Of a stretch of 64,000 nucleotides of DNA, positions 10,846-63,041 are shown in pieces (position 1 is the first letter of the stretch; every line of letters starts with the position of its first letter). Position numbers and translations under genes: made by a program. The stretch is from the NCBI GenBank assembly GCA_973895155.1, contig OZ316896.1, forward strand, positions 7,263,278 through 7,327,277, given 5' to 3'. Below the pieces are notes generated by a model. That model saw only the letters and a list, made by a program, of their open reading frames with translations, had not been told where the DNA came from and ran no database searches. The stretch comes from Marsupella aquatica. Lineage: Eukaryota > Plantae > Marchantiophyta.

Positions 10846-11020
10846 TACAGTCTACAGCAATCCACAATGTGAGATACTTCGCTCTCTTCTTTCTCCAAAT
10901 ACATATGAGGAAATGTGCTTGTGTAGGTGTTGGACTCAATGTATTTATTTAATAAATGCCTCTTATTCCCGTTATCTGACCGTTATTTTGTCTTATATGA
11001 CTCTATTTGCGGAATGATAA

Positions 11021-23100: not shown

Positions 23101-23709
23101 TGGCAATTCAAACACGACGTTCCCGTTGTACTTAGTTAGCAGACAGGAGACTTGCTCATGTCTAAAATCACCCATTGATATGAACCTCGATAACTCGCTA
23201 TGACCAGTGGATTTGAGTAACGTATCCATTGCACTCTGCCGATACACGACCTCCAACTGGTTAGAGCTTCCTGGAGTCTCACCTTTAACGACAGCATGTT
23301 GCGGGACTTTCATTTTCAACGTAGGACTTGGAGTGTGATCCCCATCTTCACTAGAAGAAATCTTGACAACATCAAATGGAACTTGGGGGACACTGGACGG
23401 TCCTTCATGTTGTCTTACTCGTAGTGAGTACAAAATCCCCGCGTATAGATGCCAAAACCGTTCACCATCATCCACATTGAATGTTGTTGCATCTTCGATG
23501 TCATCACTGGTTTCGAGCTCTCGAACAATGGCCTCAATATCACTCATCCTCAAATCAAATCTCCCGCAAAGGTATCTCTCCCGGACCTGCTTGTACGTGT
23601 CTTCCACAGGGACAGGGATGGTCACAATATCTCTAGTCCCGAATCGGGATAGAACGATGGACCCAGACATTGCAATCAAAAACAAATAACGAGGGCTGTA
23701 ATGTTTCAA
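20140..23709 (-). pseudogene. MULE/Mutator-like transposase copy B, near full length, frameshifted, intron-containing
   Basis: WVSFD, FMADNAQAGW and SDAFHF (MULE D...D and C/DxxH motifs); GCM-like CHYC...HIGEHNHP. GT-AG intron at 21238-21456 is shared with copy C. Confidence 0.85.
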
Positions 23710-23947
23710 GGAAGAAAAGTCTATGGTAATATGGAGCTTATATCAGTCAAACATGGGAACTTCACGTTAACAGATCCATTTGTATAAGACATAAAACACA
23801 GTCGACATAGGATCCGTTGGCGACATAAATGATTTTTGTCATTTTTCCTCGATAAGTCTGAATGTCAGACGCATACATAATGCCAAAAAAGACACCACAA
23901 AAATCTTTAACAAACTCTAAGATATTGTATAGTTGGAACAATTTGAG

Positions 23948-42578: not shown

Positions 42579-45014
42579 GTTGATGTGGGCAATCTTCAAA
42601 CAAGTTAATGCGACACACAAATAGCAAAATGACTCCTTCTGACTGAGTTATACCATGCACTTGCCATACAAACAATATTTTTCATACACAAGATCTGCGA
42701 ACCAAGCCATGAGGCCAACTCTATTCATCTCTTAGGCATGAGGAAACGTGAATATACACAAGGGTCACAGTATAACTAACCAAGAGCTTCTTTTACTACC
42801 TGATCCCAGCCCTGTTGGTGCACTAAAAACTTGCTAAAGAAGAAGGCCTTCAACTCCCCACAGCCCAGGTACTTATCCTGGCAGTGGATCCTCCTAATTC
42901 TTTGCAGCGTAAGCCTAATCTACCTAACTATAATCTACCTATGTACAGCGAGGCAGGAGCACAAGTGTTGCTCTTACCAGTGGATCCGCAATCCCACTAC
43001 TCTAAGTGTCAGGGCCGCCTCCTGGTCCTAATCCTAATTCTAAACTTGGAGATCTGAGCCCACCCTGCCCACTCACGCCTCCTCCCTCCATGTCCGCCCT
43101 CCTTAAAAGGAGCGGCCCTCCACCACCATCATGGTAGCGGTGGTTGATCCTCAATGGACGCCCCCAATGCTTCTTCCGTAGCCACTGCCGTAGGTCCGTC
43201 CTCTGACAAATTACTTGCCCCGGACCGAGTGAACTCTCCATCGGCCTGAGTGGGTCCACCCTCGTCTTTGGTCTCAGCATCGGCCACGGCCTCTAATACG
43301 GCTACGGCCTCCTCGGCATGGTCTAGTGGAGGATCCGATACCCCGGCTTCATCACTGATTGTTCCGACCTTGGCCTTACCATCCCCGCCTTCTAGGGGTG
43401 GATCGATCGTGATCCTGCCTGAGGTTGGCGCTGGTTGTACCTCCTCTGTCACAACGGCTTGAGAAGCCGCATTACTCCCTGACCCAAAAGGTTTCCGCTT
43501 CTTCTTCTTCCCTATTTCGGCAGCTGGTCCCTTCCCCTTGCCACTTATCTCCTGCACCGGTGCGCGAGTGTTGCGGCTTGTCCTTTGGCCAGTACTACTC
43601 CTGGCAACTTGGTTGCCCCAATTGGACTTGATGAAGCCAAGCACTTAAATACTGCGGCTTGTTTCTTTAGCCTAGGTGGAGTGAGTAGAAGTCATCGGCA
43701 TCAACCACTGTGGCCTTTGTTCCCAAGCCGCCTTGCGGATTTCTTCTATCATGGCTGGAGGGCTGCTTCATTTTTCTGCAAGCCACTTGATGTCCTTTGG
43801 CCATTCTCCCCCTGGTAAATCTTTCTCCCTATCCAGGGCTGCCCTCTCTTCCTCCCTGAGTCGCTCCTAAAACTCTTGTGCCATCTGTTTTATGCCGTCA
43901 AAGCTCGGGGGAGTGACATCTGGCAGGGGGGGACTCGGGGCTGTTCTGCTGGGTGGGGTCCCCTCGAACTACTCTTGGAAGCGTGGGGATGAAATGGCCA
44001 CAAGTCCTTATTCCTGGGACATGATGGTCCAACCCGTAACCGGAGTCATCATTGCCGTAGTCCTCCACCGCCTCCTCCACTGCTTGGACTATCGGCTCCC
44101 CCTACTGCTCCCCTGGTCTTGCCGTGAACACGGCCTCTTGCCGATCATAGCTAGCAAGTCCTAGTTCCTCCTCTGGCTTCCAGGTTGTCTTCTCCCTCTG
44201 TTTCCCCTGAACAGGAGCCTTAGGCTCCCTTCCCTCGGCTACAGGACTCGAGGCTCCTACATACATTCAAACCCCCCGGCTTGTGTTCCGGCCTCCTTCT
44301 TTCCTTGGCTTCGGTAAAGGGGTTTTTCTTCATGAGTCGGCTTAGGCCGACCTCTGAAGGAGTGTCTTGTACCTGTGCCGTTGCCGTTGCCATTCTCTTT
44401 TCCCTTCTCCAGCAATTTTAGCAAATTTTGCATGCCTGGTTGCTGCATCGGCAAGTCCTTTGTCTTCGGCCTAAACACCTGCTCGATTGTAGGACTATCA
44501 GGCTGGTTTGGTTTCTTTGTTGTCGGCCTCTATTCCGGAACCTCCTCTGGTGCCCTTGCCTGCAGTGGAAGTACCGAGGCAAAGATTTGACTTCGGGCAT
44601 ACCGGCACAATAGCGGCATGTGATAGCCAAGCTGGGACACGCTTCCCATGCTGATTGCCTACTGTTCCTCCTTCAAGATCTTCTTCAGCTGGGTGAGGAG
44701 ATACCCGTTGTAGTCCCGGCTTGGGTTTGGCCTTTCTGCTAGGTAGACCTATGCCTTGCCAATCTCTGGCCTCGGCAAGTTGCAGTGCATGGTTACCCAC
44801 AAGAAATCGATGATCTCCCCTATGTGCGGGTTGGTGCAAGTGTTCCGAAAGAAGTCATTCTTCATTGATGGCCCTGGGAACGATTGGAACTCCTTGTCTA
44901 GCAAGGTCTTCCGGGTATCTACTTTGGTCTTATTGCCCATCGGCAAGCCAAACACTTCGGCAATCACCCGGGGAGTGAGATAGAAATCCTTCCCATACAC
45001 CCTTGTGGAATTGG

Positions 45015-48000
45015 TGTGGTGCGTCCCATGGCTCCCTAAACCCAAGAAACCCCCCAGCTCAAGCCGATTCCCGCAGGTTTCGTGCTTGGCGAGGCCGTTT
45101 CCGCGGCTTAGCGGCATGGGACGCTGCTAACCTTCTACTACTACTATTAACATTTTACACACATATACTGGACAGATCCTTCATCGGGTCATGAGATACG
45201 TAGCCGGCCTAATATAGGCCTTCCCCTGTCTTCCCCTGTCTTCCCCTCCGTCTTGTTAGGTATGTTAGGATTCCGCCGCCGGAATGATCCCCAATAGGCT
45301 TGGTTAAGCCGCTAAGACCTCTCTCAGCTCGACACATCCAACTCTCACTCCCCTGCTTACTTTCCTTCCTTCTGTTGATGTGGGCACTCTTCACACAAGT
45401 TAATGCGACACACAAATAGCAAAATGACTCATTCTGACTGAGTCATACCATGCACTTGCCATACAAACAGTACATCTCATACACAAGTTCTGCGAACTAA
45501 GCCGTGAGGCCAACTCTATTCAGCTCTTAGGCATGAGGAAACATGAATATACACAAGGGTCACTGTATGACTAACCGAGAGCTTCTCGTACTACTTGATC
45601 CCAGCCCGGCTGGTGCAAACTAAAAACTTGCTAAAGAAGAGGCCCTGAGCTCCCCGCTGCCCAGGTACTTATCCTGGTAGTGGATCCGCCCTTCTTTGCA
45701 TCGTAAGCCTAATCTACTTAACAGTAATCTACTTGCCCGAATCTACCTATGTACAGCAAGGCAGGAGCACAAGTGTTGCTCCTACCAGTGGGACCGCAAT
45801 CCCACTAAGCTAAGTGTCAGGGCCGCTCCTGGTTCTGATCCTAATCCTAAACGTGGAGATCCGTGCCCGCCCTGCCCACTCACGCCTCCTCCCTCCACGT
45901 CCGCCCTCCCTAAAAGGAACGGCGCCCTTGCACCGTCACGACACCGGTGGTGGATCCTCAACGGACGCCCCCAATACTTCCTCCTCAGCCACTGCCGTTG
46001 GCCCGCCTACTGACAGATTACCTGCCCTTGACCGAGTCAACTCTCCATCGGCCTGACTGGGTCCACCTTCGGCTTCAGCCTCGACACCGGCCTCGGCAAT
46101 ACCCACGGCTTCGGCCTCAGCCACTCCCACGGCTTAGGCTTCAGCCACTCCCACGGCTTCGGCTTCCCCTTCCCCTAGGGTAGTTGGATCCTTAGCCGTG
46201 ACCCTGTCTGGGGTCGGTGCTGGGTCTACCTCCTTGATCACCACGGCCTGTGAAGTCGTATTACTCCTTGACCCTGAAGGTTTCCGCTTCTTCTTCGTTG
46301 GTGGCTCGGCAGCTGGTCCCTTCCCCTTCCCACTTACCTCCGGCACTGGTGCAGGTGGCGCGGCTTGTCCTTCGGCAATTACCACCCCTGGTAACTGGTT
46401 TGTCCCAACAGGAGATGGACCTGCTGCAGCTAAGCATTTAAATACTACGGCTTGTTTCTTCAGCCGCTCTGTTTGGTTGTCGGCCCGCCGCTGTAGGTTC
46501 TCCATCTTCCTCGTGATTTCCTCCAACTCCTCTTGGGTTTCATCCAGGTCCTTACGTGCCCCCTCCAACTCGTTTTTGGCCTCCTCCTGCTCCCTGTGGG
46601 CTTCCTCCAATTCCTTCTTCAAGGTAGCCCTCTCCTCCTGGGTTGCTCTTAGCTCCTTGTCGAGCTCTGCAATGATGACAGACTCCATCTGGTTCATCTT
46701 GGCGTAAGTCTGTTCGAGCATCTCGTCCTTCTCCCTTAGGTCGGCCTTGAAGCTGGCCGTCAGGGACGCAAGCTCCTGCTGCAGCGCCATAATCCCTTGA
46801 TAGGATTTCCCTAACTCGACCTCCTTCTGCTCAAGGGCTCCGCGGATTTTCTCGAGCTCCCCTTTCAACGCCCATTCCTTTCTTTGGGTCTCCGCCATGG
46901 CCCGGCTGTTGGCTGTTATGTGGGCCTCCTCTGTATTCTTCAGCTCTTGCTTCCACTTTTCCCTTTCTTTGATCGTGTCGGCCAACTCTTCCTGCGTCTG
47001 AGTCAGTTTATCCTTGATATTCTGATTATCAGCCTGCGCGGCGTCCAACTGCCCCTGCATGATGTTCAGCTCATGTCGTTTAATCCGCAGTTCATCTTGG
47101 GCTTTCTTGGCCGCCCTTAGATCTTCAATCTCGGCTTCCATCCTCCTAAGCCGCCGAATGACCTCGTCCTTCTTGCTTCTCTCTAAAGCCACCGCTTCTT
47201 CTAATTGGTGCTTCTCCAACTGCTCCCTATGGAAAAAGGGTCCTACCTCCAACTCCTCTCCAAAGATGCCGAGCGCAAGTTCCCCACACATCTCACCATA
47301 CTCCATGGCTCTATTCTTAGCGTAGGTGAAGTAGAAGTGATCGGCATCGCCCATCGTGGCCTCTGCTCCCAAGCCATCCTGCGGATCTCTTCAATCGTGG
47401 CTAGAGGTTTGCTTCCTTTTTCGGCTAGCCGCCTGATGTCCTCCGGCCAATCTCCTCCTGGTAAATCCTTTTCCTTAGCCAGGGCGGCCTCTTCCTCCTG
47501 CTTGATTCGCTCCTGAAATTCCTGCACCGTCTGTTTTATGCCGTCGAAGCTCGGGGGAGCAACATCTGGTGGGGGAGACTCAGGGCTACTCTGCTGGTTG
47601 GGGTCCCCTCGTACTACCCTTGGAAGTGTGGGGACAAACCGGCCACAGGTCCTTACTCCTGGAACGTGATGGTCCGACCCATAGCCGGAATTATCATGGC
47701 TGCAGTCCTCCACTGCCTCCTCTACCTCTTGGACGTCCGGCTTCTCCCTCTCCTCTTCGTTGGTAGGAGCTTCAGGCAATTCTGCCTCAGATTCGGAGCT
47801 TGAGGTTCCCACGTACATTCGAACACCTGGCTTGGATTCCGGCCTGATTCTCTCCTTGTCTCCAGCAAAGGGGTTTTCTCTTGTGAGCCGGTGTAGGCCT
47901 ACCTCTGTAGTAGTGTCCTGCATTGTTGCCGTTGCCGTTGTTGTTGCCGATGCCGATTTCTTTTCTTTCTCCAGTAGTTTCAGCAGACTCTGCATGCCTG

Positions 48001-49669
48001 GTTGCTGCATCGGCAAGTCTTCCTTCCTGGGCCTAAACACCTGCTCGATCGTAGGACTACAGGTGGTTGAGGCTTCTCAGCCAACGGCCTCGGCGTTGGA
48101 GCTTCCTCGGGTGCCCTTACCTGCAGGGGAAGTACCGGGGCAAAAGTCTGACCTCTGGCATACCGGCACAACAGCGGCATGTGATAGCCAAGCCGCGACA
48201 CGCTCCCCATGCCGATTACCTGCTGCTCCTCCTTTAAGATCTTCTTCAATTGGTTGAGGAGGTACCCGTTGTAGTCCCGGCTTGGGTCTGGCCTTTCTGC
48301 CAGATAGACCTGTGCTTTGCCGATCTCTGCCCTCGGCAAGTTACAATGCATGGTCACCCGCAAGAAGTCGATCATCTCTCCTATGTGCGGGTTGGTGCAG
48401 GTGTTCCGGAAGAAGCCATTCTTCGTTGATGGCCCGGGGAACGACCGGAACTCCTTGTCAGGCAAGGTCTTCCTGGTATCAACTTTGGTCTTATTGCCCA
48501 TCGGCAAGCCAAACACTTCGGCAATCACCTTGGGAGTAAGATAGAAATCCTTCCCATATATCCTCGTGCAATTGGTCTCGGGTTCCCATGACCCCACGAA
48601 TTCTAATAGGTCTGACTCCGGTACCTCCGGCTTCAGCCATGGTAATCTTACAAAGGCCTCCAAGCCGGATCCGGCCATGAAGCCTTGGTACTTCTTGGTC
48701 TGCATGGCCGTAAAGCATGCATCCTCCTCCCGTGCAAAATGTAGTTGCACCTCCACCGGTAGGGTTGCCGCCCAGCCCTTCCAGGTGTCATCCCTGGTTG
48801 GAATGGCCTTGATGGGATCGACCTCCTCCTCTTCGGCTTCTCCCTGCCTCCTGCTCTGCTGCTCGGCTGGCTTCTTTGGTGCCGCCGACCTCGTTCTTTT
48901 TGCCGGGGTGGCTTCATCGTTGACGGCTCCCTTCCTCTTCATCTCTGCTGCCGTGGAGGTTTCTCCTAGCACCGTTGTCCGGGTCCACCTTTCCGTGCTA
49001 CCCTTTAATTCCCAGTGTATGTCGTTGTAGTTCTTGATGGCCTCTCGGATGCCGACGACGCTGTCTTTGCAAAATAGAAGATCGTCGAGTTGATTGGAAG
49101 TAGGCGTCCACAGGAACTCGTCCTTGATGAGTTCGCCTCCTAAGAAAGCCGTCTTCTGCAGCTCCCACAATCGAGCGAGCTCCAGCCGTTCTCGAGCTGC
49201 CCTTTCTGACTCCTCGTCCTCGTAAGTCTTGATGTACTCAGTTGCCCGTTCGAACAGGCATCCCCAGAAATGTGCCGCTTGATTGACGTTGCTCATACCC
49301 TCCTTAGGTTGATCGTCGGTATCTACTCTCTCCCCGAGTGCTTGCCTAAGCAGCTGACAGTAGTTGGCCTCCCGTAGTCGTCTGCCTAGTTCGTGCTCGC
49401 AAATGAGCCACCATCTCCTGCAAGCGCTCCTTACCCCTCTCCTCTGCCGGTCCTTCTTCCCGTTGATCCTTCCTAGCCGCCGACGCTTAACGCGCCCTAA
49501 CCCTAATCGGGTTTTCACCCTCAGCCTTACCTCCGGCCTCTGCCCGGGTTCCATGGTTGCCCCTAATTGTTTATATTTTCCTTGTTTTGTCACTATACTA
49601 AGGTGTTCCTAGGGTGCCTTCCTGCTTTACCCACTTAACCGGCCGAGTGATTCCTGTCTAGGCATCACA
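45015..49669 (-). repeat. 3' LTR (4655 bp)
   Basis: TGTGATGC at 49669 immediately after the PPT; GCACCACA end at 45015. Confidence 0.95.
45936..49554 (-). pseudogene. LTR-encoded PMD-like/coiled-coil ORF, 3' LTR copy
   Basis: ORFs 47980-49593, 47243-48040, 46134-47372 and 45936-46130. A 1-bp deletion (~48059) and a 4-bp deletion (~47330) relative to the solo LTR, plus a private stop at 46134. Confidence 0.85.
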
Positions 49670-52600
49670 TAGCTCCCCACTTAATTGTGAAGCGTCCTCG
49701 CGAACAACTTCATCTTCGTCCATATAGTATTTCTTGAGGCGGTCATAATGGATGCGAACTGGATATACCTCTCCCGTAATGTTGGCCAATTGTACGGAGC
49801 CATTGGGGAACATCATGGTTACTCTAAAGGGTCCTAACCAGCGAGTGTAAAGCTTTCCTGGAAACCTACTATACCTACTGTCATAAAGTAGCACAAGATC
49901 ACCGGTATGAATACTAACTACTTTTAACCTTTTATCATACTGCTGCTTCATGATATTCTGTCTATATTCTACTCTCTCGGCTGAAATCATTCTCGCTTCC
50001 TCTAAAGCTTCTAACCTATATTCTCGCTCCTTTAGGCTCTCCTCCGCTGAGGCTCTTTCCTCAATTGTAACTTGAAATGTCGGTATCTCAAGTTGCATGG
50101 GTACCAGGGCTTCTTGTCCAAAGGTTAAGAAGAAGGGTGTATGACCGGTAGTGGATTTATAGGCCAGATTGTAAGCAAAAACAGCAGCAAACAATTTATC
50201 ATCCCAATCGAGTTTGTTCTGAGCTACTGTTTTGTTCAATATCTTTCCTATGATTCCGTTTGCTCGTTCTGTCAACCCGTTTGCCTTTGGATGGTAGGGA
50301 GTAGTAGGCCTATGTTTAACTAAATACTGCTCATTTAAACGACTAATTATATCATTCAAAAAATGGGTTCCTCTATCACTAACTAATTCTAGGGGTGCTC
50401 CATACCTGGTGAAGATCTGCTCATACATGAATCTAGCCGTAGTAATTGCATCATCCTTCGTTGTTGGTCTGGCCTCTACCCATTTAGTTGCATAATCCGT
50501 AGCCAGGATTATGTACTTGTTCCGTCGAGGGTGGGTCAGTGGTTTCAGAGGTCCAATGTAATCAATACCCCACTTCTCGAATGGTGCCAGAGGTAGAATA
50601 GGGTGCAGTGGATGCCTGGTGGACGCCCTTGGTCCTCCCGCTCGTTGACAAGGATCGCATTGTTTGATAAACTGATAGACATCCTTGTGCAAGGTGGGCC
50701 ACCAGTAACCGGCATTTAATATCTTCTTAGACGTGGTTACTGGGGCAAAATGTCCTCCGGCCTCCTCTCCATGCATGGCCCGTAGGACTCGTTTTACCTC
50801 TCTCTTTTCCAAACACCTTTGAATCGTGCCGTTGATTCCATGCTTGTGCAGTATGCCTTTAATGCACTGATACTGTCTGACCTTCCGCACAAAGACTGCG
50901 GCTTGCTCTCGGCTTAATCCTGGCTGTAATCTGGAAGTGCTGAGAAATTGTAAAATCTCAGGGTACCATGTACCAGCTATTTCCACAACGAATAGCTCCT
51001 CGTCGGGGAATCGATCATCGATGCAATCCGTGGCAGGTTTACCTGTGATCCTTGAAAAGAAGTCGGCATTGGCATGTAACTTTCCCGGCTTGATCCTCAG
51101 CTCATAGTCAAACTCCTGTAATAGCAAAATCCATCTTGCTACTCTGCCTGTAAGGTCCGGCTTATTGACTAGGTACTTCAAACTTTCATGATCAGTATGA
51201 AAGATTACCTTGTACCCTAGTAAATAATGCCTAAACTTTTTACAAGAATAAATGACTCCTAATGCTTCTCTTTCCGTGGTAGAGTAGTTCCGTTCGGCAT
51301 CGGCAAGCTGACGGCTTGCGAAGTATATGGGATGGTCCCTTCCTTTCTCATCCAACTGACTTAGTACTGAGCCAATACAGAAGCCCGAGACATCTACAAA
51401 AACATGAAAATCTTTGTTCCAGTCCGGTGCTATCATGACTGGGGCCTCTACTAACATCTGCTTCAATTCTACCACCGCTGTGACTCGTTCGGGTGTGGGT
51501 TCGAAGTCTGCTCCTGCCTTGAGCATATTGGTTAATGGTAAAGCTAGCTTGGCAAAATCCTTGATGAACCGGCGATAGTAACCAATGCATCCCAAGAAGG
51601 ATCTTACATCCTTTATGTTCTTAGGTTGCATGATATCTAGCCATACTGCTAGCTTACCTTTGTCAATCTCAATGCCCTTCCTTGATACCTTGTGACCTAG
51701 TAGCACCCCCTCGGTTACTGCAAAAAAACATTTATCTGGGTGTAACTTGAGACCCACCTCCCTACATCTCATGAAGGTTTTCCTGAGGTATTTAGCATGT
51801 TTCGATGCCTTCTCGAATACTGCAAAGTCATCAATGAAGATTTCCATGAACTTTCTCAAGTAATCATGAAAAATGTTCACCATTAATCGTTGGAACATAG
51901 CTGGTGCGTTGCAGAGTCCAAACGGCATACGATTGAAGACATAGATCCCCCATTCCGTGATGAAGGCCGTCTTGATTTGGTCTTCCTGCCGAATCCTGAT
52001 TTGGTTATAACCAGAGTATCCATCCATGAATGAATATAGTTCATGACTGGCTACCATGTCTAGTACCATATCAGTAAACGGTAAAGGAAAATGGTCTTTT
52101 AATGTTGCTTCATTCAGCTTCCTGTAATCCTGACAAACCCGGATCTTGGGTTTACCATCGGGTCCAGCTTTCTTGGGAACTATCACAATTGGAGACACCC
52201 AGTCTGAATGCAGGACTGGAGTGATGAATCCAGCTTCCACTAGTTTGTCGATTTCTGTTTTGACCAGCAGGGAATACTTCGGGTTCATCCTTCGAATTGG
52301 TTGTCGAAATGATTTGGCTCCTAACATGAGATCAATTCGATGTTCCCCTAGTGTTGGATCTACTCCCTTTAGATCTTGGTGACTCCATGCAAACACATCC
52401 TGAAATTCAATCAATAAGTCACTGATCTCTTTCTCGAGCTCAGGCGCTAGGTTTCTCCCTAAGTTCAGTTCTCTTCCCTCTCCTAAGTCGAGCTTCCGAT
52501 ATTGCCGTGCTTGGATCATATTAATCTGCTTCTTCAAATTCGGGTCCAGTTCGGCTTCCAGTCTCTCTAATCTCATACCTCCATAAACTGGGATCTCGGC

Positions 52601-52924
52601 TGGACTAGCCGAGTCGGTCCCTTCCTTGGTGTCCATAGATTGTCCCCTTACCGGTCTATTCAGTTTTGAATTAGTGGCCGGCTCCCCTTCCTGCCTTGGC
52701 TCTGGATCGTGTCTGTCCATCTCATCCACCTCTTGCTCCTGCGAGTTAGGCCGTTGTGCTCTCTCGGCTTCTAATAGGGCCTCAATTTGTTCTGCCCTCG
52801 TAATCGGCTTGTATGCCGATCCCTTGGTATTTAATTCCTTGCCGATGATCGATGGCGTTGTGGACCCCGTCGGCTCTGCCACAACGCCTGCAGAAAATCC
52901 ATTGTCCCTGCTACTGCTCCCCAC
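49658..52924 (-). CDS. pol: Pol (RT, RNase H, integrase; no chromodomain), in the -1 frame relative to gag-PR
   Basis: 1088-aa ORF with RVCQDYRKLN, FIDDF, VFVDVSG, HHCC Zn finger, WGIDY, SDRG, NGLTER. Stop codon lies inside the 3' LTR. Confidence 0.95.
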   Translation of the reverse strand: MGSSSRDNGFSAGVVAEPTGSTTPSIIGKELNTKGSAYKPITRAEQIEALLEAERAQRPNSQEQEVDEMDRHDPEPRQEGEPATNSKLNRPVRGQSMDTKEGTDSASPAEIPVYGGMRLERLEAELDPNLKKQINMIQARQYRKLDLGEGRELNLGRNLAPELEKEISDLLIEFQDVFAWSHQDLKGVDPTLGEHRIDLMLGAKSFRQPIRRMNPKYSLLVKTEIDKLVEAGFITPVLHSDWVSPIVIVPKKAGPDGKPKIRVCQDYRKLNEATLKDHFPLPFTDMVLDMVASHELYSFMDGYSGYNQIRIRQEDQIKTAFITEWGIYVFNRMPFGLCNAPAMFQRLMVNIFHDYLRKFMEIFIDDFAVFEKASKHAKYLRKTFMRCREVGLKLHPDKCFFAVTEGVLLGHKVSRKGIEIDKGKLAVWLDIMQPKNIKDVRSFLGCIGYYRRFIKDFAKLALPLTNMLKAGADFEPTPERVTAVVELKQMLVEAPVMIAPDWNKDFHVFVDVSGFCIGSVLSQLDEKGRDHPIYFASRQLADAERNYSTTEREALGVIYSCKKFRHYLLGYKVIFHTDHESLKYLVNKPDLTGRVARWILLLQEFDYELRIKPGKLHANADFFSRITGKPATDCIDDRFPDEELFVVEIAGTWYPEILQFLSTSRLQPGLSREQAAVFVRKVRQYQCIKGILHKHGINGTIQRCLEKREVKRVLRAMHGEEAGGHFAPVTTSKKILNAGYWWPTLHKDVYQFIKQCDPCQRAGGPRASTRHPLHPILPLAPFEKWGIDYIGPLKPLTHPRRNKYIILATDYATKWVEARPTTKDDAITTARFMYEQIFTRYGAPLELVSDRGTHFLNDIISRLNEQYLVKHRPTTPYHPKANGLTERANGIIGKILNKTVAQNKLDWDDKLFAAVFAYNLAYKSTTGHTPFFLTFGQEALVPMQLEIPTFQVTIEERASAEESLKEREYRLEALEEARMISAERVEYRQNIMKQQYDKRLKVVSIHTGDLVLLYDSRYSRFPGKLYTRWLGPFRVTMMFPNGSVQLANITGEVYPVRIHYDRLKKYYMDEDEVVREDASQLSGELCDA
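49670..49682 (-). promoter_or_regulatory. Polypurine tract, inside the integrase coding sequence
   Basis: AAGTGGGGAGCTA abuts the LTR TG; same sequence at 63054-63066. Confidence 0.8.
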
Positions 52925-55632
52925 TTAGCCGTTTCATCCAATTGGTCTACATCCTTAACTTCCTCCGGAATTGCAGCTAAAAAGGTGGATTCTATTGTAA
53001 AGCAGTCCTCGACCTCTTCGTCTTCTTCTTCCAAGTCACCTTCCATTGGTTCTTGCCATAATCCGCTGGGGGGTACCTCTGGTCCAAAGACACCTTCTTC
53101 GGTTAGGTTAGTGAAGCATTCTAACCAACGTACTTCATCGGCTGACTCCAGTCCACTATCGTACCCATCTACTTCCCTTATGCTTTTCCTACGGTCATCC
53201 TTAGTGTCCCAGGATACCGTGATAGAGGGGGTCCCGAAAGTGAACTGCTTTTTACCCCAATCTTCTATTACCTCGGCTAGGTACAGCCATGGCCTACCAA
53301 TCAATAGCCGGAATGACGTAGGATTTACCGGCTTCATTACTACATAGTTAATGCTAAAGAAGATACCTCCTATCTCTGTCTTGATGCCGGTTAACACTCC
53401 CGTCGGAATGACCTGATATCCATTGGCCATGTTCAACACTCTTCCAGTCATCTCCGGTGTTAGACCCCACCCTTTTGCTGTTGAATCAATCATAATACAT
53501 ACCCCTGATCCTCCATCGATGGGTACCCATAGTAATAATTCTCCTTGAATCATTAATGGTAATGCTGGGGCTCCTTGATCTTCTTCTATCATTAGTACGT
53601 CGGATCTGGTTGCTACCTTGGGTAATCTCGGCTTGCCGAGAATAGCCTTCCTTAATTGCTTCCGGAAGTACGGGCTATTTTTCAATAGTTGACCTACTGT
53701 TGCCGAGACTCTAGATTCTAGTACATCTTTAGCCAGGTCATAGGGAACAATCGGCTTCTCTTCTGGTGGTGTTTCCGTCTTGGATTCGGCCAGTTTTGCC
53801 ACGCTAGTCTCCACAGCTGTTGGGTCTTCCGAAGCAAACAATGCTTTTGCTCGTTTTACATCCTTGGCAATGGCTTCGGTATTCTCCAGGGTTTCTAATT
53901 CTCTTAGTTGTTCCTTAACACTAGCCGTAACAGAGGGGTAGAACAACTTAGGATGATCTCGATTGAAGTCGCTATCTTGTGAAGGATTGGTTTCACTGGT
54001 GGGCTCATGGCTTACCTGTATTGCCGGAGCCCTCCCTTCTCCTTCTGTTGATGTTGACGAAGAGTCGATCCTTTCCTCCGTAACCTTCCCTTTATTTTTG
54101 GCCAGCCCATCCCACCTTTCCTTCCTTCTGGTAGATCGAGTAGAGACCCGGTAGCAATCATGATCTAAATCCTCCTCTGAGAAGGTTGATAGGGCTTCGG
54201 CCTCATCATCAGATGGTACGAACTCTGCCTCGGCATCCTCTTGCCATCCTAGTTCGATGTGGTTGATTTGAACTCCTCCGGGGGTAGTACCTGGCGGTAA
54301 GATCTTGATCGGCAAAAGCTTATGATTTGCGGCCAGGCCTGCCAACCAAGTAGGACATTGCCCTAGCATATGACCTTCCTGTCGGCATCCCATACATAGC
54401 TGAGCTGGTTGTCCATCACCCTGTTTGCGTGCATTCGGGCATTCTCTAGCAAAATGGCCAGGTTGACCACAATTATAGCACGCCGCAAATCTTTGCACAT
54501 TCGGCCTAGGAGGTACTGACGGGTTCTGAATAATCCGAGGATACATCTCTCCTGGATTGTTCCTTAACCCTGACCACAGAGATGCAGGTCTGTTGGATAG
54601 GTCTCGTGCTCCAGTCTCACTGATGCCGAAAACACTATCAGCGGCATCTCCCAAAAAGTACTCTACTTCTCCCTGACATGGTCTGATCTCGGCCACATGC
54701 CGAACATGATTAGTATTAAGCTTAGGACAAGCATCTTTATGGTGTCCGGTTTTATAACATAAGGCACACCATACAGAGCTATCCTCCTGTACTACCTTCT
54801 TCTTTGGTTTTACCTCTGCAATGATAGCCTTAAGTTGCTCGGTAAGGGCTACGATGTTATCTGGTGGCTTAGCCTCCATCTTGACTTTCGTCTTCCCTCT
54901 CCTTCTGCCCTTCCTTTTCCTAGTTTTTTCTTCTTCAGAACTAGAAGATGACTCACTCTTGCTACTCCCACTATCCGAGCTTGACTTATCACTTCTAGAC
55001 TTCTTGGAATGTTTCTTCTTCTTATCTTTTTTCTTATGGGGTGATCCCTCCTCTGATGAGGAACTCTCAGACTTAAGCTGTTTCTTCCGGCTTGTGATAT
55101 CTGCATTAATGTATAATTGAATATCCTTAATTGCTTCGGCTAAGGTCTCCGGGTTCTCCTTCCTAATTGCAAAACTCATCTTCTGTGGCAAAGCATTCAC
55201 CAACCATTGAAGTTGCATACCTTCAGATGCATTGGTCTTTGTACGTCTTACCAGTTTCTGAAAGCGTTGCAAGAACTTCCTGAAGGATTTGTTCTCCTTG
55301 AACCAAAGTTGTCCCAACTTCAGCACTGCTAGTTCTGAAGTTCCAATGGGTCGAAACTCCTTAACAAAGAGTGTTTTGAAGATATCCCAGATGGCTTGAT
55401 CTTCCACATCTAATGCTCTGTACCAAGGCCTAGCCTCACCCTTGAACAGGCCGGGAAGAATCTGCATCTTGATGGCTGATTCTCCATTTGCTGCAGCGGT
55501 TCCCTCGAAATCATCCAACCATTCGTCCGGATCCTCATCTCCTCTCCCATGAAATGCCTTGTAATGTATGCGCGACCGCTGGCTCAATCTGGTCCCTGGC
55601 CTCTCGTCTGGCCGTGCCTCTGGTTCCCCCAT
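52831..55632 (-). CDS. gag: Gag-protease (933 aa)
   Basis: FHGRGDEDPDEWL capsid motif, three CCHC knuckles, protease IDGGSGV and LLIGRPWL. Confidence 0.93.
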   Translation of the reverse strand: MGEPEARPDERPGTRLSQRSRIHYKAFHGRGDEDPDEWLDDFEGTAAANGESAIKMQILPGLFKGEARPWYRALDVEDQAIWDIFKTLFVKEFRPIGTSELAVLKLGQLWFKENKSFRKFLQRFQKLVRRTKTNASEGMQLQWLVNALPQKMSFAIRKENPETLAEAIKDIQLYINADITSRKKQLKSESSSSEEGSPHKKKDKKKKHSKKSRSDKSSSDSGSSKSESSSSSEEEKTRKRKGRRRGKTKVKMEAKPPDNIVALTEQLKAIIAEVKPKKKVVQEDSSVWCALCYKTGHHKDACPKLNTNHVRHVAEIRPCQGEVEYFLGDAADSVFGISETGARDLSNRPASLWSGLRNNPGEMYPRIIQNPSVPPRPNVQRFAACYNCGQPGHFARECPNARKQGDGQPAQLCMGCRQEGHMLGQCPTWLAGLAANHKLLPIKILPPGTTPGGVQINHIELGWQEDAEAEFVPSDDEAEALSTFSEEDLDHDCYRVSTRSTRRKERWDGLAKNKGKVTEERIDSSSTSTEGEGRAPAIQVSHEPTSETNPSQDSDFNRDHPKLFYPSVTASVKEQLRELETLENTEAIAKDVKRAKALFASEDPTAVETSVAKLAESKTETPPEEKPIVPYDLAKDVLESRVSATVGQLLKNSPYFRKQLRKAILGKPRLPKVATRSDVLMIEEDQGAPALPLMIQGELLLWVPIDGGSGVCIMIDSTAKGWGLTPEMTGRVLNMANGYQVIPTGVLTGIKTEIGGIFFSINYVVMKPVNPTSFRLLIGRPWLYLAEVIEDWGKKQFTFGTPSITVSWDTKDDRRKSIREVDGYDSGLESADEVRWLECFTNLTEEGVFGPEVPPSGLWQEPMEGDLEEEDEEVEDCFTIESTFLAAIPEEVKDVDQLDETAKWGAVAGTMDFLQALWQSRRGPQRHRSSARN
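52841..52900 (-). promoter_or_regulatory. Candidate -1 programmed ribosomal frameshift signal
   Basis: G_GAT_TTT (52900-52894) in gag phase, 5-nt spacer, perfect 10-bp stem GGCGTTGTGG/CCACAACGCC; loop GCCGA can pair with downstream TCGGC. Confidence 0.75.
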
Positions 55633-55661
55633 GTCGGTTGGAGACTCACTTCTCCTTACCG

Positions 55662-58600
55662 ACTCTCACTCCCCTGCTTACTTTCCTTCCTTCTGTTGAT
55701 GTGGGCACTCTTCACACAAGTTAATGCGACACACAAATAGCAAAATGACTCATTCTGACTGAGTCATACCATGCACTTGCCATACAAACAGTACATCTCA
55801 TACACAAGTTCTGCGAACTAAGCCGTGAGGCCAACTCTATTCAGCTCTTAGGCATGAGGAAACATGAATATACACAAGGGTCACTGTATGACTAACCGAG
55901 AGCTTCTCGTACTACTTGATCCCAGCCCGGCTGGTGCAAACTAAAAACTTGCTAAAGAAGAGGCCCTGAGCTCCCCGCTGCCCAGGTACTTATCCTGGTA
56001 GTGGATCCGCCCTTCTTTGCATCGTAAGCCTAATCTACTTAACAGTAATCTACTTGCCCGAATCTACCTATGTACAGCAAGGCAGGAGCACAAGTGTTGC
56101 TCCTACCAGTGGGACCGCAATCCCACTAAGCTAAGTGTCAGGGCCGCTCCTGGTTCTGATCCTAATCCTAAACGTGGAGATCCGTGCCCGCCTTGCCCAC
56201 TCACGCCTCCTCCCTCCACGTCCGCCCTCCCTAAAAGGAACGGCGCCCTTGCACCGTCACGACACCGGTGGTGGATCCTCAATGGACGCCCCCAATACTT
56301 CCTCCTCAGCCACTGCCGTTGGCCCGCCTACTGGCAGATTACCTGCCCTTGACCGAGTCAACTCTCCATCGGCCTGACTGGGTCCACCTTCGGCTTCAGC
56401 CTCGACACCGGCCTCGGCAATACCCACGGCTTCGGCCTCAGCCACTCCCACGGCTTCGGCTTCAGCCACTCCCACGGCTTCGGCTTCCCCTTCCCCTAGG
56501 GTAGTTGGATCCTTAGCCGTGACCCTGTCTGGGGTCGGTGCTGGGTCTACCTCCTTGATCACCACGGCCTGTGAAGTCGTATTACTCCTTGACCCTGAAG
56601 GTTTCCGCTTCTTCTTCGTTGGTGGCTCGGCAGCTGGTCCCTTCCCCTTCCCACTTACCTCCGGCACTGGTGCAGGTGGCGCGGCTTGTCCTTCGGCAAT
56701 TACCACCCCTGGTAACTGGTTTGTCCCAACAGGAGATGGACCTGCTGCAGCTAAGCATTTAAATACTGCGGCTTGTTTCTTCAGCCGCTCTGTTTGGTTG
56801 TCGGCCCGCCGCTGTAGGTTCTCCATCTTCCTCGTGATTTCCTCCAACTCCTCTTGGGTTTCATCCAGGTCCTTACGTGCCCCCTCCAGCTCGTTTTTGG
56901 CCTCCTCCTGCTCCCTGTGGGCTTCCTCCAATTCCTTCTTCAAGGTAGCCCTCTCCTCCTGGGTTGCTCTTAGCTCCTTGTCGAGCTCTGCAATGATGAC
57001 AGACTCCATCTGGTTCATCTTGGCGTAAGTCTGTTCGAGCATCTCGTCCTTCTCCCTTAGGTCGGCCTTGAAGCTGGCCGTCAGGGACGCAAGCTCCTGC
57101 TGCAGCGCCATAATCCCTTGATAGGATTTCCCTAACTCGACCTCCTTCTGCTCAAGGGCTCCGCGGATTTTCTCGAGCTCCCCTTTCAACGCCCATTCCT
57201 TTCTTTGGGTCTCCGCCATGGCCCGGCTGTTGGCTGTTATGTGGGCCTCCTCTGTATTCTTCAGCTCTTGCTTCCACTTTTCCCTTTCTTTGATCGTGTC
57301 GGCCAACTCTTCCTGCGTCTGAGTCAGTTTATCCTTGATATTCTGATTATCAGCCTGCGCGGCATCCAACTGCCCCTGCATGATGTTCAGCTCATGTCGT
57401 TTAATCCGCAGTTCATCTTGGGCTTTCTTGGCCGCCCTTAGATCTTCAATCTCGGCTTCCATCCTCCTAAGACGCCGAATGACCTCGTCCTTCTTGCTTC
57501 TCTCTAAAGCCACCGCTTCTTCTAATTGGTGCTTCTCCAACTGCTCCCTATGGAAAAAGGGTCCTACCTCCAACTCCTCTCCAAAGATGCCGAGCGCAAG
57601 TTCCCCACACATCTCACCATACTCCATGGCTCTATTCTTAGCGTAGGTGAAGTAGAAGTGATCGGCATCGCCCATCGTGGCCTCTGCTCCCAAGCCGTCC
57701 TGCGGATCTCTTCAATCGTGGCTAGAGGTTTGCTTCCTTTTTCGGCTAGCCGCCTGATGTCCTCCGGCCAATCTCCTCCTGGTAAATCCTTTTCCTTAGC
57801 CAGGGCGGCCTCTTCCTCCTGCTTGATTCGCTCCTGAAATTCCTGCACCGTCTGTTTTATGCCGTCGAAGCTCGGGGGAGCAACATCTGGTGGGGGAGAC
57901 TCAGGGCTACTCTGCTGGTTGGGGTCCCCTCGTACTACCCTTGGAAGTGTGGGGACAAACCGGCCACAGGTCCTTACTCCTGGAACGTGATGGTCCGACC
58001 CATAGCCGGAATTATCATGGCTGCAGTCCTCCACTGCCTCCTCTACCTCTTGGACGTCCGGCTTCTCCCTCTCCTCTTCGTTGGTAGGAGCTTCAGGCAA
58101 TTCTGCCTCAGATTCGGAGCTTGAGGTTCCCACGTACATTCGAACACCTGGCTTGGATTCCGGCCTGATTCTCTCCTTGTCTCCAGCAAAGGGGTTTTCT
58201 CTTGTGAGCCGGTGTAGGCCTACCTCTGTAGTAGTGTCCTGCATTGTTGCCGTTGCCGTTGTTGTTGCCGATGCCGATTTCTTTTCTTTCTCCAGTAGTT
58301 TCAGCAGACTCTGCATGCCTGGTTGCTGCATCGGCAAGTCTTCCTTCCTGGGCCTAAACACCTGCTCGATCGTAGGACTACAGGTGGTTGAGGCTTCTCA
58401 GCCAACGGCCTCGGCGTTGGAGCTTCCTCGGGTGCCCTTACCTGCAGGGGAAGTACCGGGGCAAAAGTCTGACCTCTGGCATACCGGCACAACAGCGGCA
58501 TGTGATAGCCAAGCCGCGACACGCTCCCCATGCCGGTTACCTGCTGCTCCTCCTTTAAGATCTTCTTCAATTGGTTGAGGAGGTACCCGTTGTAGTCCCG

Positions 58601-59990
58601 GCTTGGGTCTGGCCTTTCTGCCAGATAGACCTGTGCTTTGCCGATCTCTGCCCTCGGCAAGTTACAATGCATGGTCACCCGCAAGAAGTCGATCATCTCT
58701 CCTATGTGCGGGTTGGTGCAGGTGTTCCGGAAGAAGCCATTCTTCGTTGATGGCCCGGGGAACGACCGGAACTCCTTGTCAGGCAAGGTCTTCCTGGTAT
58801 CAACTTTGGTCTTATTGCCCATCGGCAAGCCAAACACTTCGGCAATCACCTTGGGAGTAAGATAGAAATCCTTCCCATATATCCTCGTGCAATTGGTCTC
58901 GGGTTCCCATGACCCCACGAATTCTAATAGGTCTGACTCCGGTACCTCCGGCTTCAGCCATGGTAATCTTACAAAGGCCTCCAAGCCGGATCCGGCCATG
59001 AAGCCTTGGTACTTCTTGGTCTGCATGGCCATAAAGCATGCATCCTCCTCCCGTGCAAAATGTAGTTGCACCTCCACCGGTAGGGTTGCCGCCCAGCCCT
59101 TCCAGGTGTCATCCCTGGTTGGAATGGCCTTGATGGGATCGACCTCCTCCTCTTCGGCTTCTCCCTGCCTCCTGCTCTGCTGCTCGGCTGGCTTCTTTGG
59201 TGCCGCCGACCTCGTTCTTTTTGCCGGGGTGGCTTCATCGTTGACGGCTCCCTTCCTCTTCATCTCTGCTGCCGTGGAGGTTTCTCCTAGCACCGTTGTC
59301 CGGGTCCACCTTTCCGTGCTACCCTTTAATTCCCAGTGTATGTCGTTGCAGTTCTTGATGGCCTCTCGGATGCCGACGACGCTATCTTTGCAAAACAGAA
59401 GATCGTCGAGTTGATTGGAAGTAGGCGTCCACAGGAACTCGTCCTTGATGAGTTTGCCTCCTAAGAAAGCCGTCTTCTGCAGCTCCCACAATCGAGTGAG
59501 CTCCAGCCATTCTCGAGCTGCCCTTTCTGACTCCTCGTCCTCGTAAGTCTTGATGTACTCAGTTGCCCGTTCGAACAGGCATCCCCAGAAATGTGCCGCT
59601 TGATTGACGTTGCTCATACCCTCCTTAGGTTGATCGTCGGTATCTACTCTCTCCCCGAGTGCTTGCCTAAGCAGCTAACAGTAGTTGGCCTCCCGTAGTC
59701 GTCTGCCTAGTTCGTGCTCGCAAATGAGCCACCATCTCCTGCAAGCGCTCCTTACCCCTCTCCTCTGCCGGTCCTTCTTCCCATTGATCCTTCCTAGCCG
59801 CCGACGCTTAACGCGCCCTAACCCTAATCGGGTTTTCACCCTCAGCCTTACCTCCGGCCTCTGCCCGGGTTCCATGGTTGCTCCTAATTGTTTATATTTT
59901 CCTTGTTTTGTCACTATACTAAGGTGTTCCTAGGGTGCCTTCCTGCTTTACCCACTTAACCGGCCGAGTGATTCCTGTCTAGGCATCACA
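55662..59990 (-). repeat. 5' LTR lacking its last 326 bp and the PBS; carries a second copy of the LTR ORF (56257-59875)
   Basis: Matches 45341-49669 and joins ~30 nt upstream of the gag ATG at 55632. Confidence 0.92.
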
Positions 59991-60523
59991 ATTGGTCTCA
60001 GGTTCCCATGATCCCATAAATTCTAATAAGTCTGAATCCGACACCTTCGACTTTAGCCATGGTAATTTCAAGAAAGCTTCCAAGCCGGATCCGGCCATGA
60101 AGCCCTGGTACTTCTGAGTCTGCATAGCCGTAAAGCATGCATCCTCTTCACGTGCAAAGTGTAATTGCACTTCCTCGGGGAGGTCGCCGCCTAGCCTTTC
60201 CTGTGTCATCTCTTGTCAGAACAACATTGATGGGGTTGACCTCCTCTTCTTCGGCTTTGTCCTGGCTCCTGCTCCCTTGCTTGCTTGGCTTCCTTGGTGC
60301 CGCCGACCTCGTTCTCTTCGCAGGGGTGGTCACTTCGTTGGCGTTTCCTTTCCTCTTCATAGCTACTGCCATGGATGTTTCTCCTAGCACGGTTGCCTTC
60401 ATCCACCCCTCCATGCTACCGTTCAACTCCCAGTGTATGTCGTTGCAGCAGTTGATGGCTTCCCGGATGCCGACTATTTTGTTCTCACAAAACAAAAGAT
60501 CATTGATTTTGTCGCTAGTAGGT

Positions 60524-62472
60524 CACTAGTACATATTTAGCTGATTTCCGATGCTCAATTTTTGCAAACAATTGGCGTCCGATTCTTTTAGAATCGGAAA
60601 TTCCCATTATCACAAAATGGCAATATGCCATACTCTCAGCTTTGGATATCTTCATTTCCGATGTAATTAACAATGGAACCTTTCTGATGCGGTAAAAAAT
60701 GGATCATATCCGTTACAAAATACATCGGATCCCCTAACAAAAAATTTGATTGATATGTCCGATGTTTTTTGTAACGGAAATAATGTGCGTTTCAATATTG
60801 ATCGGAAAAGTTTTGTAGTTGATAAGAACGGATATTATATCCAATTGTGGTAAAATGGCAAAGTCCGATGTTGAGAGAATGGGAAAGTCCGATGCTGAGA
60901 GAATGAGAAAGTCCGATGCTAGGAGAATGGGAAAGTCCGATGCTAGTAGAATGGGAAAGTCCGATGCTGGGAGAATGGGAAATTTTCATTTTGGCAAAAC
61001 GACAAATTCCTATTGTGTTAGATGGGGCATGTAGTTGCACCGACATACTCTTCCTAGAAAAGAGGATACAATCATTCTTGCATGTTTGAATGACTTCATA
61101 CTTGAGGCAAATGGACTTAATTGAATGTTGTTCTTGCCTCCTTCCAAGACCCCAAAATATTGTTCCCTTTTGGCAATATTTGCTCAACATGCAAAATCAA
61201 AATTTATCATCTAAAAGGAGATTGCTTGTCCCATGTAGTCTTTGTTGCAAGTCCAACAACATCATAGTTGATGAAAGATGAGACAATCGGGAGCTGCCCT
61301 TGACGCCAAGGCTTTGGAAGGACCAAAATATTAATCTTCCATAACTAATAAACTATAATGATCTTATGTCAAGTTGGATGGAGGAGGGCTTTACTATTCA
61401 CGAATGACCCCAAATTTCTATTGATTGCTCCAAGGAAATTAAGAGGGTAATCGTAATTATAGATCACTCAATGCAAACATGCAATATCATAATAGAGCAA
61501 AACTGGGATTTATTAGTCTAATGCCACACTTTTGTGGCATAATCACTACATTGCCACTCTTTTTCTTGTATTTATCACTCTGCCTCTCGTTTGAGTCATT
61601 GGTTAAGAAAAGTAACTCAGGTTAACTACCTAAGATCCGTCGTTGAGATTTCTTTTGGTCTTCCCATTGGATGGTCGTCGCTTCCCTCACGGTTACATTT
61701 TGAACCCTTAGTATAGTTTGCGGAGGGGTGGGTCGGCTAATCCATTTCTCCTCCCCTCCATTTCTCTATCACCATAGTCGAGGCGCATTGGCTGCGTCTT
61801 TGCTCCACCCTTGCCACTATCGTTGCGTCCTCATTTCCCCGGCCCGGGCTGTGTTGTCGTTGATCCTGGCTGCCTCTAGCTTGGCTGGGGCTGCATTGTT
61901 GCATGTTTCCTGTTGGCCTCTCCCGACTCTGCCCAGCTTAGGTCCAAATTATGGGTCTTAATAAATTTAGAAGTGTATAAAATTCCTAAACACTCCAAGT
62001 CAAACAATAAAAGTGTTAAGCTTGCATGTACATTGTGAGGGATAAGAACCACAAAGTTAAGCTCATGTTGGAGGAATAGCAATTGGGATGGGTGACCACT
62101 TAGTTGAGGAATGAAAAGTTGAAATGTCAAAGGAGATGGGCACCTTGCTCATGGTTGCAAAATGAAAGTAAATATACAAAGGAAGAGATGGGTGACCTGA
62201 GCACCCCGCGTCCGCTCCAATGTGTATCCCATTTTCATTGTTTTGCTCTTTCCCATTCTCCCAGCATTGGACTTTCCCATTCTCCCAACATCGGACTTTC
62301 CCATTCTTTCAGCATTGGACTTTCCGATTTAAGTCCGATTGTCGATATCCGATACTTTTATCATGGCATGTTACGATGCCGGCAGAATTGGATGTATGGT
62401 TTTTTTATATTTTGTTTTACAAAGACGTCCGATGTGGAGAGAATTGGAAAAAGGAGGTAAAATGTACTAGTG
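60524..62472. mobile_element. Non-autonomous CACTA element
   Basis: TIR CACTAGTACAT...ATGTACTAGTG with 3-bp TSD GGT. 24-bp GGAAAGTCCGATGCT repeats in opposite orientation (~60860-60980, ~62250-62330). TnpD remnant ICLKYEVIQTCKNDCILF. Confidence 0.92.
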
Positions 62473-63041
62473 GGTGTCCACAGGAATTTAACCGTGATGA
62501 GTTCTCCTCCTACGAAGGCAAACTTCTGTAGCTCCCACAGTCAAGCGAGCTCCTGCCATTCTCGAGTGGCTCTCTCTGATTCTTTGTCCTTGTAGAGCCC
62601 AATGTACTCAATTGCCCGTTCTAACAGGCATCCCCAAAAATGAGCAGCCTGATTGACGTTGCTCATACCCTTCCTTGAATTGATAGTCTGTATCTGCTCC
62701 CTCCCCCGCTCCCTCCCCAAGTGCTTGCCTAAGCAGCTGACAGTAGTTGCTTCACGTAGTCGTCTGCTTAGTTCGTGCTTTCAAATGAGCCACCATTCCT
62801 TGCGATCAATCCTTACCCCCCTGCCTGGTCTTCCTTCCCGTTAGTTACCCATAGCCGCCGGTACTTAGCGCGTCCTAACCCTAATCATGTTCCCTCTCTC
62901 GACGTCCTTACTTCCAGCCTCAGCTCGGGTTCCATAGTCACCCTTAATTGTTTATATTTTCCTTGTTTTTGTTACTATACTAATGTGTTTCCAGGGTACA
63001 CTCCTGATTTTTACCATTTAAACTGGCCTAGTGATTCCTGG

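Follow-up and report, generated by a model that had tools for sequence, protein, structure and literature searches.

An accessory gene inside the long terminal repeats of a liverwort Ty3/gypsy retrotransposon family, with a predicted VANC21/PMD-type fold

In a 64,000-nucleotide stretch of the Marsupella aquatica genome (contig OZ316896.1, positions 7,263,278 to 7,327,277; hereafter the window), a Ty3/gypsy retrotransposon of a family that we term A carries a long sense open reading frame (ORF) inside its long terminal repeats (LTRs) (Table 1). Since a solo LTR and older family-A copies in the window start and end at the same bases, it is virtually certain that the LTR is a unit of 4,655 bp that includes the ORF. 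The explanation that we favor, with slightly better than even confidence, is that a 3' accessory gene was captured by the LTR through a move of the polypurine tract (PPT), and that its product is a nuclear protein of the VANC21/plant mobile domain (PMD) fold, which would act in trans on the chromatin of the family.

On the minus strand, the family-A element extends from 59990 to 45015; its termini are TGTG...CACA, and it is inserted in an older LTR of its own family. It was assigned to Ty3/gypsy by the order of gag followed by reverse transcriptase, RNase H and integrase, and by its LTRs, PPT and target-site duplication (TSD); Pfam searches of the pol ORF at E 0.05 found neither a chromodomain nor a second RNase H (aRH). 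Self-comparison revealed a direct repeat of 4,332 bp with 99.5% identity (45338-49669 versus 55659-59990) and an inverted 4.5-kb copy at 28262-32797. Because it has both LTR ends and a TSD of its own, the inverted copy is a solo LTR; it was 98.7% identical to the 3' LTR of the element. The older family-A copies, at 80-85% identity, had the same LTR ends: one LTR started at 63053, at the same base as in the element and after a PPT and an integrase end, and a second terminated at the same CACA (27533). An earlier reading of this DNA, made from the sequence alone (the sequence-only reading), had taken the LTR boundaries as fixed by the TSD, the PPT and the solo LTR, and they are, with the older copies as further support; its estimate that LTRs make up about 60% of the element was likewise borne out (60.0%). 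Its length of 4.6 kb for each LTR held for the 3' LTR, but the 5' LTR measures 4,332 bp, as its final 323 bp are gone together with the primer-binding site (PBS) plus nearly all of the leader. The gag gene starts 26 nt past this break, and this copy is probably dead. No PBS was found behind any family-A LTR end in the window. As a rival reading, the long repeat might be artificial, the product of assembly or of tandem repetition at a short-LTR element; this would account for the abnormal 5' junction, and such an artefact does occur in our comparison set (locus L009, see below), but this reading has a negligible probability: two TSD-flanked units and the 80-85% identical older copies have the same ends, and the two LTRs differ by 21 substitutions (19 of them transitions) and no indels, with a Kimura two-parameter distance of 0.005. 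The solo LTR with its own TSD refutes it. Copies with short LTRs and an internal ORF, to which the sequence-only reading had pointed as evidence that would speak against it, were not found within family A.

The ORF lies in sense orientation and spans 3,619 nt, with its first ATG at 49554 and its stop at 45936. The span of about 3.6 kb given before was thus correct, but none of the family-A copies in the window retained an unbroken frame. An excess of changes at third positions was absent from codons 1-86 (14/18/17) and present in later segments (11/6/20, 17/15/28 and 10/6/28). The protein therefore probably begins at Met87 and comprises about 1,120 aa, which replaces the earlier figure of about 1200. 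Two frameshifts, at LTR offsets 1610 and 2341, were common to both LTRs of the element and were missing from the solo LTR and from an older copy; moreover, each LTR of the element contained one private stop, and the ORF of the solo LTR had a 100-bp loss that other family-A copies did not share. To estimate selection, as the sequence-only reading had advised, the natural frames of the solo copy were compared with those of the older family-A copies by the pairwise Nei-Gojobori method. The core domain gave dN/dS values of 0.12 (bootstrap 0.06-0.20) and 0.14, close to the 0.10 of the integrase as a control. Values for the other segments were 0.21-0.32 (N-terminal), 0.39 (linker), 0.24 (helical region) and 0.62 (C-terminus), and ORF segments read in shifted frames yielded 0.62-1.50. 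The LTR ORF is thus under purifying selection.

Related elements have a homologous gene outside the LTR. We scanned 14 of the 64 parts of a metagenome collection for relatives of the family-A pol and kept 79 of 454 loci (designated L), among them elements with a sense ORF behind pol. A hidden Markov model (HMM) of the core matched the 3' ORFs of L003, L002, L013 and L020 at E 6e-5 to 4e-3, and a reverse HMM built without family-A sequence recovered the family-A ORFs among 7,824 pieces at E 1.3e-6 to 3.7e-6. Profile-profile comparison between core relatives and the 3' ORFs of pol relatives gave a probability of 97.4% (E 9.5e-12). These comparisons indicate homology between the LTR ORF and the sense 3' accessory gene situated, in relatives, between pol and a short LTR, in line with the earlier proposal that an accessory gene had been absorbed into the LTR (there specified as U3). 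In L002, L003, L009, L011, L014 and L020 the ORF was internal, with the LTR start behind it; L014 had a true 1.6-kb LTR pair, and the LTR of L002 was about 1 kb long. Four of these six loci (L002, L003, L014 and L020) also had a G-rich tract between pol and the ORF. A PPT and a TGT start preceded the ORF in L001, L016 and L013. The TGT start of L001 is an 8-bp inverted match of the LTR end, the contigs of L001 and L016 stop in the ORF or 218 bp after it, and L013 is ambiguous and sister to the internal-ORF locus L002; up to three metagenome relatives may therefore share the LTR-borne layout. L009 and L010, in which gag-pol appeared to be flanked by two ORF copies, were not accepted as further cases: the repeat, which leaves out the LTR end, runs from the contig start to the contig end, the start of the LTR comes after the ORF, and the doubled ORF of L009 is an assembly wrap-around of a circular unit. 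Seven further loci also matched the ORF (L004, L005, L018, L019, L024, L029 and L079).

The core domain of the LTR protein has no Pfam family. Neither the ORF pieces nor any of the 38 members of the core alignment matched PMD (PF10536), DUF1985 or DUF287. Transposase_32 (PF20167) was matched by 6 of the 38 members (best E 1.4e-8) and not by the query; four Transposase_32 scores were 19-27 bits against a cut-off of 45. Transposase_32 and ATHILA clusters were also listed by the Atlas at 0.89, which we regard as a lead only. Modeled from the 38-sequence alignment, the core reached a predicted local distance difference test score (pLDDT) of 88.5 and a predicted template modeling score (pTM) of 0.86; a first model from 19 sequences (pLDDT 57), which gave weak matches only, with VANC21 at Z 3.1, was set aside. 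Among 48,161 solved chains, the best match to the core model was VANC21 bound to its target DNA, with a Z score of 8.2 (near the level that the tool flags as possibly unspecific) and a root mean square deviation of 3.9 over 194 of 202 residues. It was the only clear match, as the runner-up had a Z score of 2.4. The sister VANC21 entry (the two structures are PDB 9LNK/9LNJ) scored Z 8.1 and ranked first in Foldseek, with a template modeling (TM) score of 0.50 and E 0.78. A profile search of PDB sequences did not recover VANC21. On this model, the core is predicted to adopt a VANC21/PMD-type fold. The term "PMD-like" in the sequence-only reading is thus correct at the level of the predicted fold, whereas the protein stands outside Pfam PMD. 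The link to PMD is indirect and runs through VANC21, for whose DUF1985 region a resemblance to PMD-C and to the PMD of MAIN/MAIL1 has been reported (PMC13547354 and bioRxiv 2024.09.27.615353, both in part; citations marked "in part" rest on passages of the source). In L009, L011, L014 and L020, which belong to a more distant Athila-like clade, the core domain heads long internal 3' ORFs (900-1,340 aa) with Transposase_32 matches. This arrangement suggests that Transposase_32 is a VANC/PMD-fold domain and not a transposase.

We consider a nuclear role at DNA or chromatin marginally the better bet for the gene product; anti-silencing as such is a more tentative assignment, held at clearly less than even confidence. 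The LTR protein contains several basic clusters and a long charged helical region. A membrane or movement function of the env-like kind, which has been proposed for the sense 3' ORFs of Athila-type elements, would agree with the position and orientation of "env-like" ORFs (PMC7264820). It is nevertheless highly improbable, as no hydrophobic, membrane-type helix was found in the LTR protein (best 19-residue means 0.72 and 0.82) and the fold match is a nuclear DNA-binding protein; the viral fold library gave no match at E 0.001 (best E 0.018, TM 0.37). Repeated short words were observed in non-coding LTR or linker sequence at 16962-18853 and 42352-42438 in the window, in L002 and in L013 (2400-2500), and they differed between families; in the solo LTR of a second family (D, see below), one 8-mer occurred 7 times (0 of 200 shuffles). 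Such family-differing words would be compatible with sites at which the accessory protein binds in a family-specific manner.

From these results we propose the following course of events. Plus-strand priming would have moved from a PPT behind the gene to the PPT at the integrase end, and we hold such a switch to an upstream PPT to be a reasonably probable cause of the longer LTR. In the window, the integrase end carries the motif by which the used PPT of L002 and L003 is recognized, and the pol stop codon of the family-A element falls within the LTR. The non-coding tail of the LTR, which was 92% identical to the older copy (ORF region, 84%), is likely the ancestral short LTR. Once part of the LTR, the gene would be copied into both LTRs by reverse transcription and would persist in solo LTRs. 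In two of four public sequencing runs, the summed depth of contigs on the ORF was 3.0-fold and 3.7-fold that on the internal region and similar to that on the tail, which is a hint and not a copy number; in the other two, depth was sparse with spikes in pol. A TATA-like block near the LTR start would serve as the gene's own promoter, followed by a leader and translation from Met87, so that any LTR could express the gene. The protein would then bind DNA or chromatin of its own family and counter silencing. Both LTRs of an element derive from one template, and the ORF in the parent RNA was therefore already broken; the product was thus not required in cis. Since the element was copied from a template with an already frameshifted ORF, the protein would work in trans.

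Two other roles or layouts were weighed against this proposal. The protein might be an integration-targeting or particle-assembly factor, with a helical region that oligomerizes and a core that anchors the pre-integration complex on chromatin. The dense nesting of family A in its own LTRs in the window and the lack of a detectable chromodomain are compatible with this idea, and Athila-domain and VANC proteins are predicted to oligomerize via coiled coils (PMC13547354, in part); we still consider it unlikely, because a copy with a broken ORF transposed, and the sole solved relative is an anti-silencing DNA-binding protein. Similarly, the ORF could belong to R/U5, with the TATA-like block driving the genomic RNA, the ORF as first cistron, in the manner of a 5' extra ORF, and gag-pol expressed by splicing or reinitiation. 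The best-conserved block of the LTR head is indeed TATA-like and lies 95 bp from the start, and a clearly conserved TATA was not seen in the tail. This layout, however, requires a minus-strand strong-stop product of about 4.5 kb. Moreover, internal-ORF relatives have LTRs of about 1-1.6 kb that match the tail in size and place, and the tail is better conserved than the ORF; we therefore judge the R/U5 layout to be about as improbable as the targeting role.

A number of observations weigh against the capture of a VANC-like gene by a PPT switch. The possible relic of the 3' PPT behind the ORF is not above chance, as the best site in 87 of 100 shuffles equaled or exceeded the second-best site, which itself outscores the relic. 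In sequence, the PPT in use is closer to the tract that lies downstream in L002 and L003 than to the upstream one, which fits capture by recombination as well. In such an event, the ORF-plus-LTR module would have come from one element and the pol end, PPT and LTR start from another, linked by a template switch. The used tract, its upstream motif and the TGTGATG start match the site behind the ORF in L002 (39 of 45 nt, E 8e-7) and in L003, and not the post-pol tracts; in addition, the ORFs of L001 and L016, despite a sister pol, are more distant from the family-A core than are Calypogeia proteins and L003. Conversely, both tracts are versions of one motif, the used one would be kept by selection wherever it is placed, and relatives already have the upstream tract in place; on balance, recombination appears possible but doubtful. 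With regard to the PPT switch and its proposed consequences, the TATA-like block could drive the whole element instead of the gene. The VANC21 match has an identity of 8% in addition to its borderline Z score of 8.2 and its Foldseek E of 0.78. An enriched short word was not found in the family-A tail, in contrast to VANC targets. Finally, contigs of four public sequencing runs showed both length states at the two shared breaks, and part of family A has spread without an intact gene.

The nearest named relatives of the element are liverwort sequences. With high coverage or identity, the best relatives of pol among named organisms came from Calypogeia, Riccia and Marchantia, and 3 of 10 core relatives that were looked up were Calypogeia fissa proteins; three of 21 HMMER matches (P0125, P0139 and P0141) were dropped as unrelated or too short. 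A word-indexed protein search with the ORF and a search with the core alignment among proteins of 1,379-3,935 aa found nothing, and no pol relative was found in viral contigs. A midpoint-rooted tree of 38 rows was built with 17 of the 79 loci and 19 of 120 proteins (L019, L042, L043 and L052 were too short and left out). In this tree, which held no labeled Athila references, the family-A element formed a group (support 100/100) with two Calypogeia proteins and a second Gypsy element of the window (element C), within a bryophyte-rich clade apart from angiosperm matches, and the pol of L001 and L016 formed the sister group of the family-A pol. Both TSD-flanked family-A units had a TSD of 5 bp. 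Phygy and Selgy, as defined in PMC6317226, have a 4-bp TSD and no extra ORF (in part), and are excluded for family A because of its 5-bp TSD and extra ORF. In Athila, 95% of TSDs are 5 bp long (PMC6317226 supplement, in part). Compared by description only, family A fits Athila in its TSD, its extra ORF and the lack of aRH and chromodomain. Liverworts are covered in PMC12885004 (in part) by listed lineages only.

A second family in the window, D, repeats the layout of family A with an ORF inside the LTR. Its two copies had an identical start (42578 and 18853), and its ORF was nearest to those of L013 and L002 (36-39%). Since the ORF of L002 is internal, the move of the ORF into the LTR probably happened at least twice; ORF-position labels on the tree required two changes for either label. 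Element C (1-6030, minus strand) is a sister Gypsy family, with 63-70% identity to family A in pol and 36% in gag, and no homologous ORF was found upstream of its PBS. Its PBS-like word lies about 20 nt past the nearest CA (11 nt in L002), a longer distance than usual. One PBS word was common to element C, L001/L002 and Athila-like loci, and this word may be of the tRNA-Asp type that characterizes the Athila clade in REXdb.

Other sequences in the window have shaped or surround these copies. A decayed LINE (long interspersed nuclear element) reverse transcriptase (35787-38170, minus strand) truncates the second older family-A LTR. The first older LTR contains an insertion of about 1.9 kb (60522-62469) with inverted 24-bp tandem arrays near both ends, which looks like a non-autonomous DNA transposon. 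The DNA that received the family-D solo LTR includes a 26-bp tandem array of 8 copies (16174-16380). A transposase-like ORF was present in three diverged copies (43-68% aa identity; 9205-10851 and 20473-23742 on the minus strand, 38090-39961 on the plus strand), whose motifs, judged by eye, recall Mutator-type DDE enzymes but which have no Pfam family. Opposite the first of them lies a multi-exon-looking gene (11494-15047, plus strand) with no Pfam or Atlas match, possibly a transposon cargo gene. It contains what we presume to be a ParB-like DGNHR word near its start and a methyltransferase-like word near its end.

Table 1. Coordinates of the family-A element, its LTR-borne ORF and related copies in the window
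Feature	Position	Strand	Remarks
Ty3/gypsy element, family A	45015..59990	-	14,976 bp; TSD, TG..CA ends, LTR pair, gag-pol
Target-site duplication, left copy, 5 bp	45010..45014	.	Identical to 59991-59995
Target-site duplication, right copy, 5 bp	59991..59995	.	Identical to 45010-45014
3' LTR, 4,655 bp	45015..49669	-	PPT directly before LTR start
5' LTR, 4,332 bp	55659..59990	-	99.5% identical to 45338-49669; 45015-45337 unmatched here
gag-protease ORF	52831..55632	-	Retrotrans_gag and zinc knuckle (Pfam E 7e-9 and 1.5e-8); protease motif by eye
pol ORF, reverse transcriptase-RNase H-integrase	49658..52924	-	Overlaps gag in another frame; Pfam
Polypurine tract in use	49670..49682	-	G-rich; inside last integrase codons
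LTR ORF, 3' copy	45936..49554	-	First ATG 49554; probable start Met87 at 49296
LTR ORF, 5' copy	56257..59875	-	Two shared frameshifts, one private stop
Core domain, ~200 aa	48142..48747	-	Predicted VANC21/PMD-type fold; modeled from solo copy 29184-29789
Long charged helical region, likely coiled coil	46446..47309	-	Weak coiled-coil family matches, below cut-off
25-nt A-rich block with TATA-like word	49564..49588	-	95 bp into LTR; identical in older copy; candidate promoter
T-run and purine tract, possible relic 3' PPT	45899..45920	-	~20 nt past ORF stop; position weight matrix score 7.6 versus 7.4 for true PPT
Non-coding LTR tail, ~920 bp	45015..45935	-	Likely ancestral short LTR
Solo LTR, family A	28262..32797	+	Both LTR ends, own 5-bp TSD; two long ORF frames of 694 and 544 aa
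Older family-A copy, interrupted by element	42579..63998	-	Integrase end and PPT 63998-63054; LTR pieces 63053-62469, 60522-59991, 45014-42579
Second older family-A LTR	27533..35786	-	Pieces 35786-32798 and 28261-27533; split by solo LTR
Family D insertion	39965..42578	-	TGT start at 42578; homologous frameshifted ORF ~430 bp inside
Family D solo LTR	16962..18853	-	TG..CA, 5-bp TSD; middle deleted; ~120 C-terminal codons of ORF retained

Among known systems, Athila4, Calypso and Bagy2 are similar to family A in their non-chromovirus gag-pol without aRH, their 5-bp TSD and a sense ORF after pol (PMC2829016 and PMC6317226, both in part), and Athila4 and Calypso are reported to have an extra PPT in the linker (PMC2829016, in part). 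The Athila-type ORF, however, is internal (PMC7264820; PMC6317226, in part), whereas that of family A lies inside the LTR, is doubled and is kept in solo LTRs. The likeness to VANC21 of VANDAL21, an Arabidopsis Mutator-like transposon, consists in the predicted core fold over nearly its whole length; moreover, both proteins are transposon-encoded, accessory and equipped with a coiled-coil region (PMC13547354, in part, for VANC21; likely coiled coil here). VANC21 binds to a short motif and strips methylation from the transposon family to which it belongs (PMC5735166, in part). It differs in that it belongs to a eudicot DNA transposon and binds arrays of a 9-bp motif (PMC5735166, in part), of which the family-A tail has none. 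Gypsy-encoded clades exist among plant mobile domain proteins (PMC5418596, in part), but PMD-A is described from angiosperms, and there is no PF10536 match here. Retrosat2/RIRE3/RIRE8 and Ogre likewise combine LTRs of 3-5 kb with an extra ORF (PMC3485330 and PMC6317226, both in part); in the former, ORF0 lies upstream of gag-pol and separate from the LTR (PMC3485330, in part), and Ogre has aRH. A full-text literature search, with subscription papers outside its reach, found no description of a plant retrotransposon with an extra ORF inside the LTR. Protein genes present in both LTRs are a feature of retroviral U3 regions (sag of mouse mammary tumor virus and the overlap of nef and of foamy-virus accessory genes), but these belong to vertebrate retroviruses and encode much smaller, unrelated proteins.

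What extra ORFs do in plant Gypsy elements has yet to be settled (PMC7264820), and the ancestry of PMD, from retrotransposons or from host genes, is likewise open (PMC5418596, in part). A VANC21-like fold in a 3' ORF family of early land plants would offer a testable hypothesis for the former and a deep outgroup for the latter. Judging from relatives with two PPTs, the LTR could have become 4-fold longer by a simple route, and LTR finders with small length limits would miss or mis-cut such elements. A gene in the LTR has its dose doubled and outlives LTR-LTR recombination, and leftover LTRs might help family A to escape silencing. In a broader and speculative view, bryophyte Gypsy elements would have repeatedly moved a VANC-like anti-silencing gene with its promoter into their LTRs, and solo LTRs would be free-standing counter-silencing genes; on this view, retrotransposons would have had a protein of the VANC/PMD fold since ancient times, and the Athila-type "env-like" ORFs would in part be its relatives. 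If this repeated capture is true, the gene in a solo LTR would survive the host's main route of retrotransposon removal.

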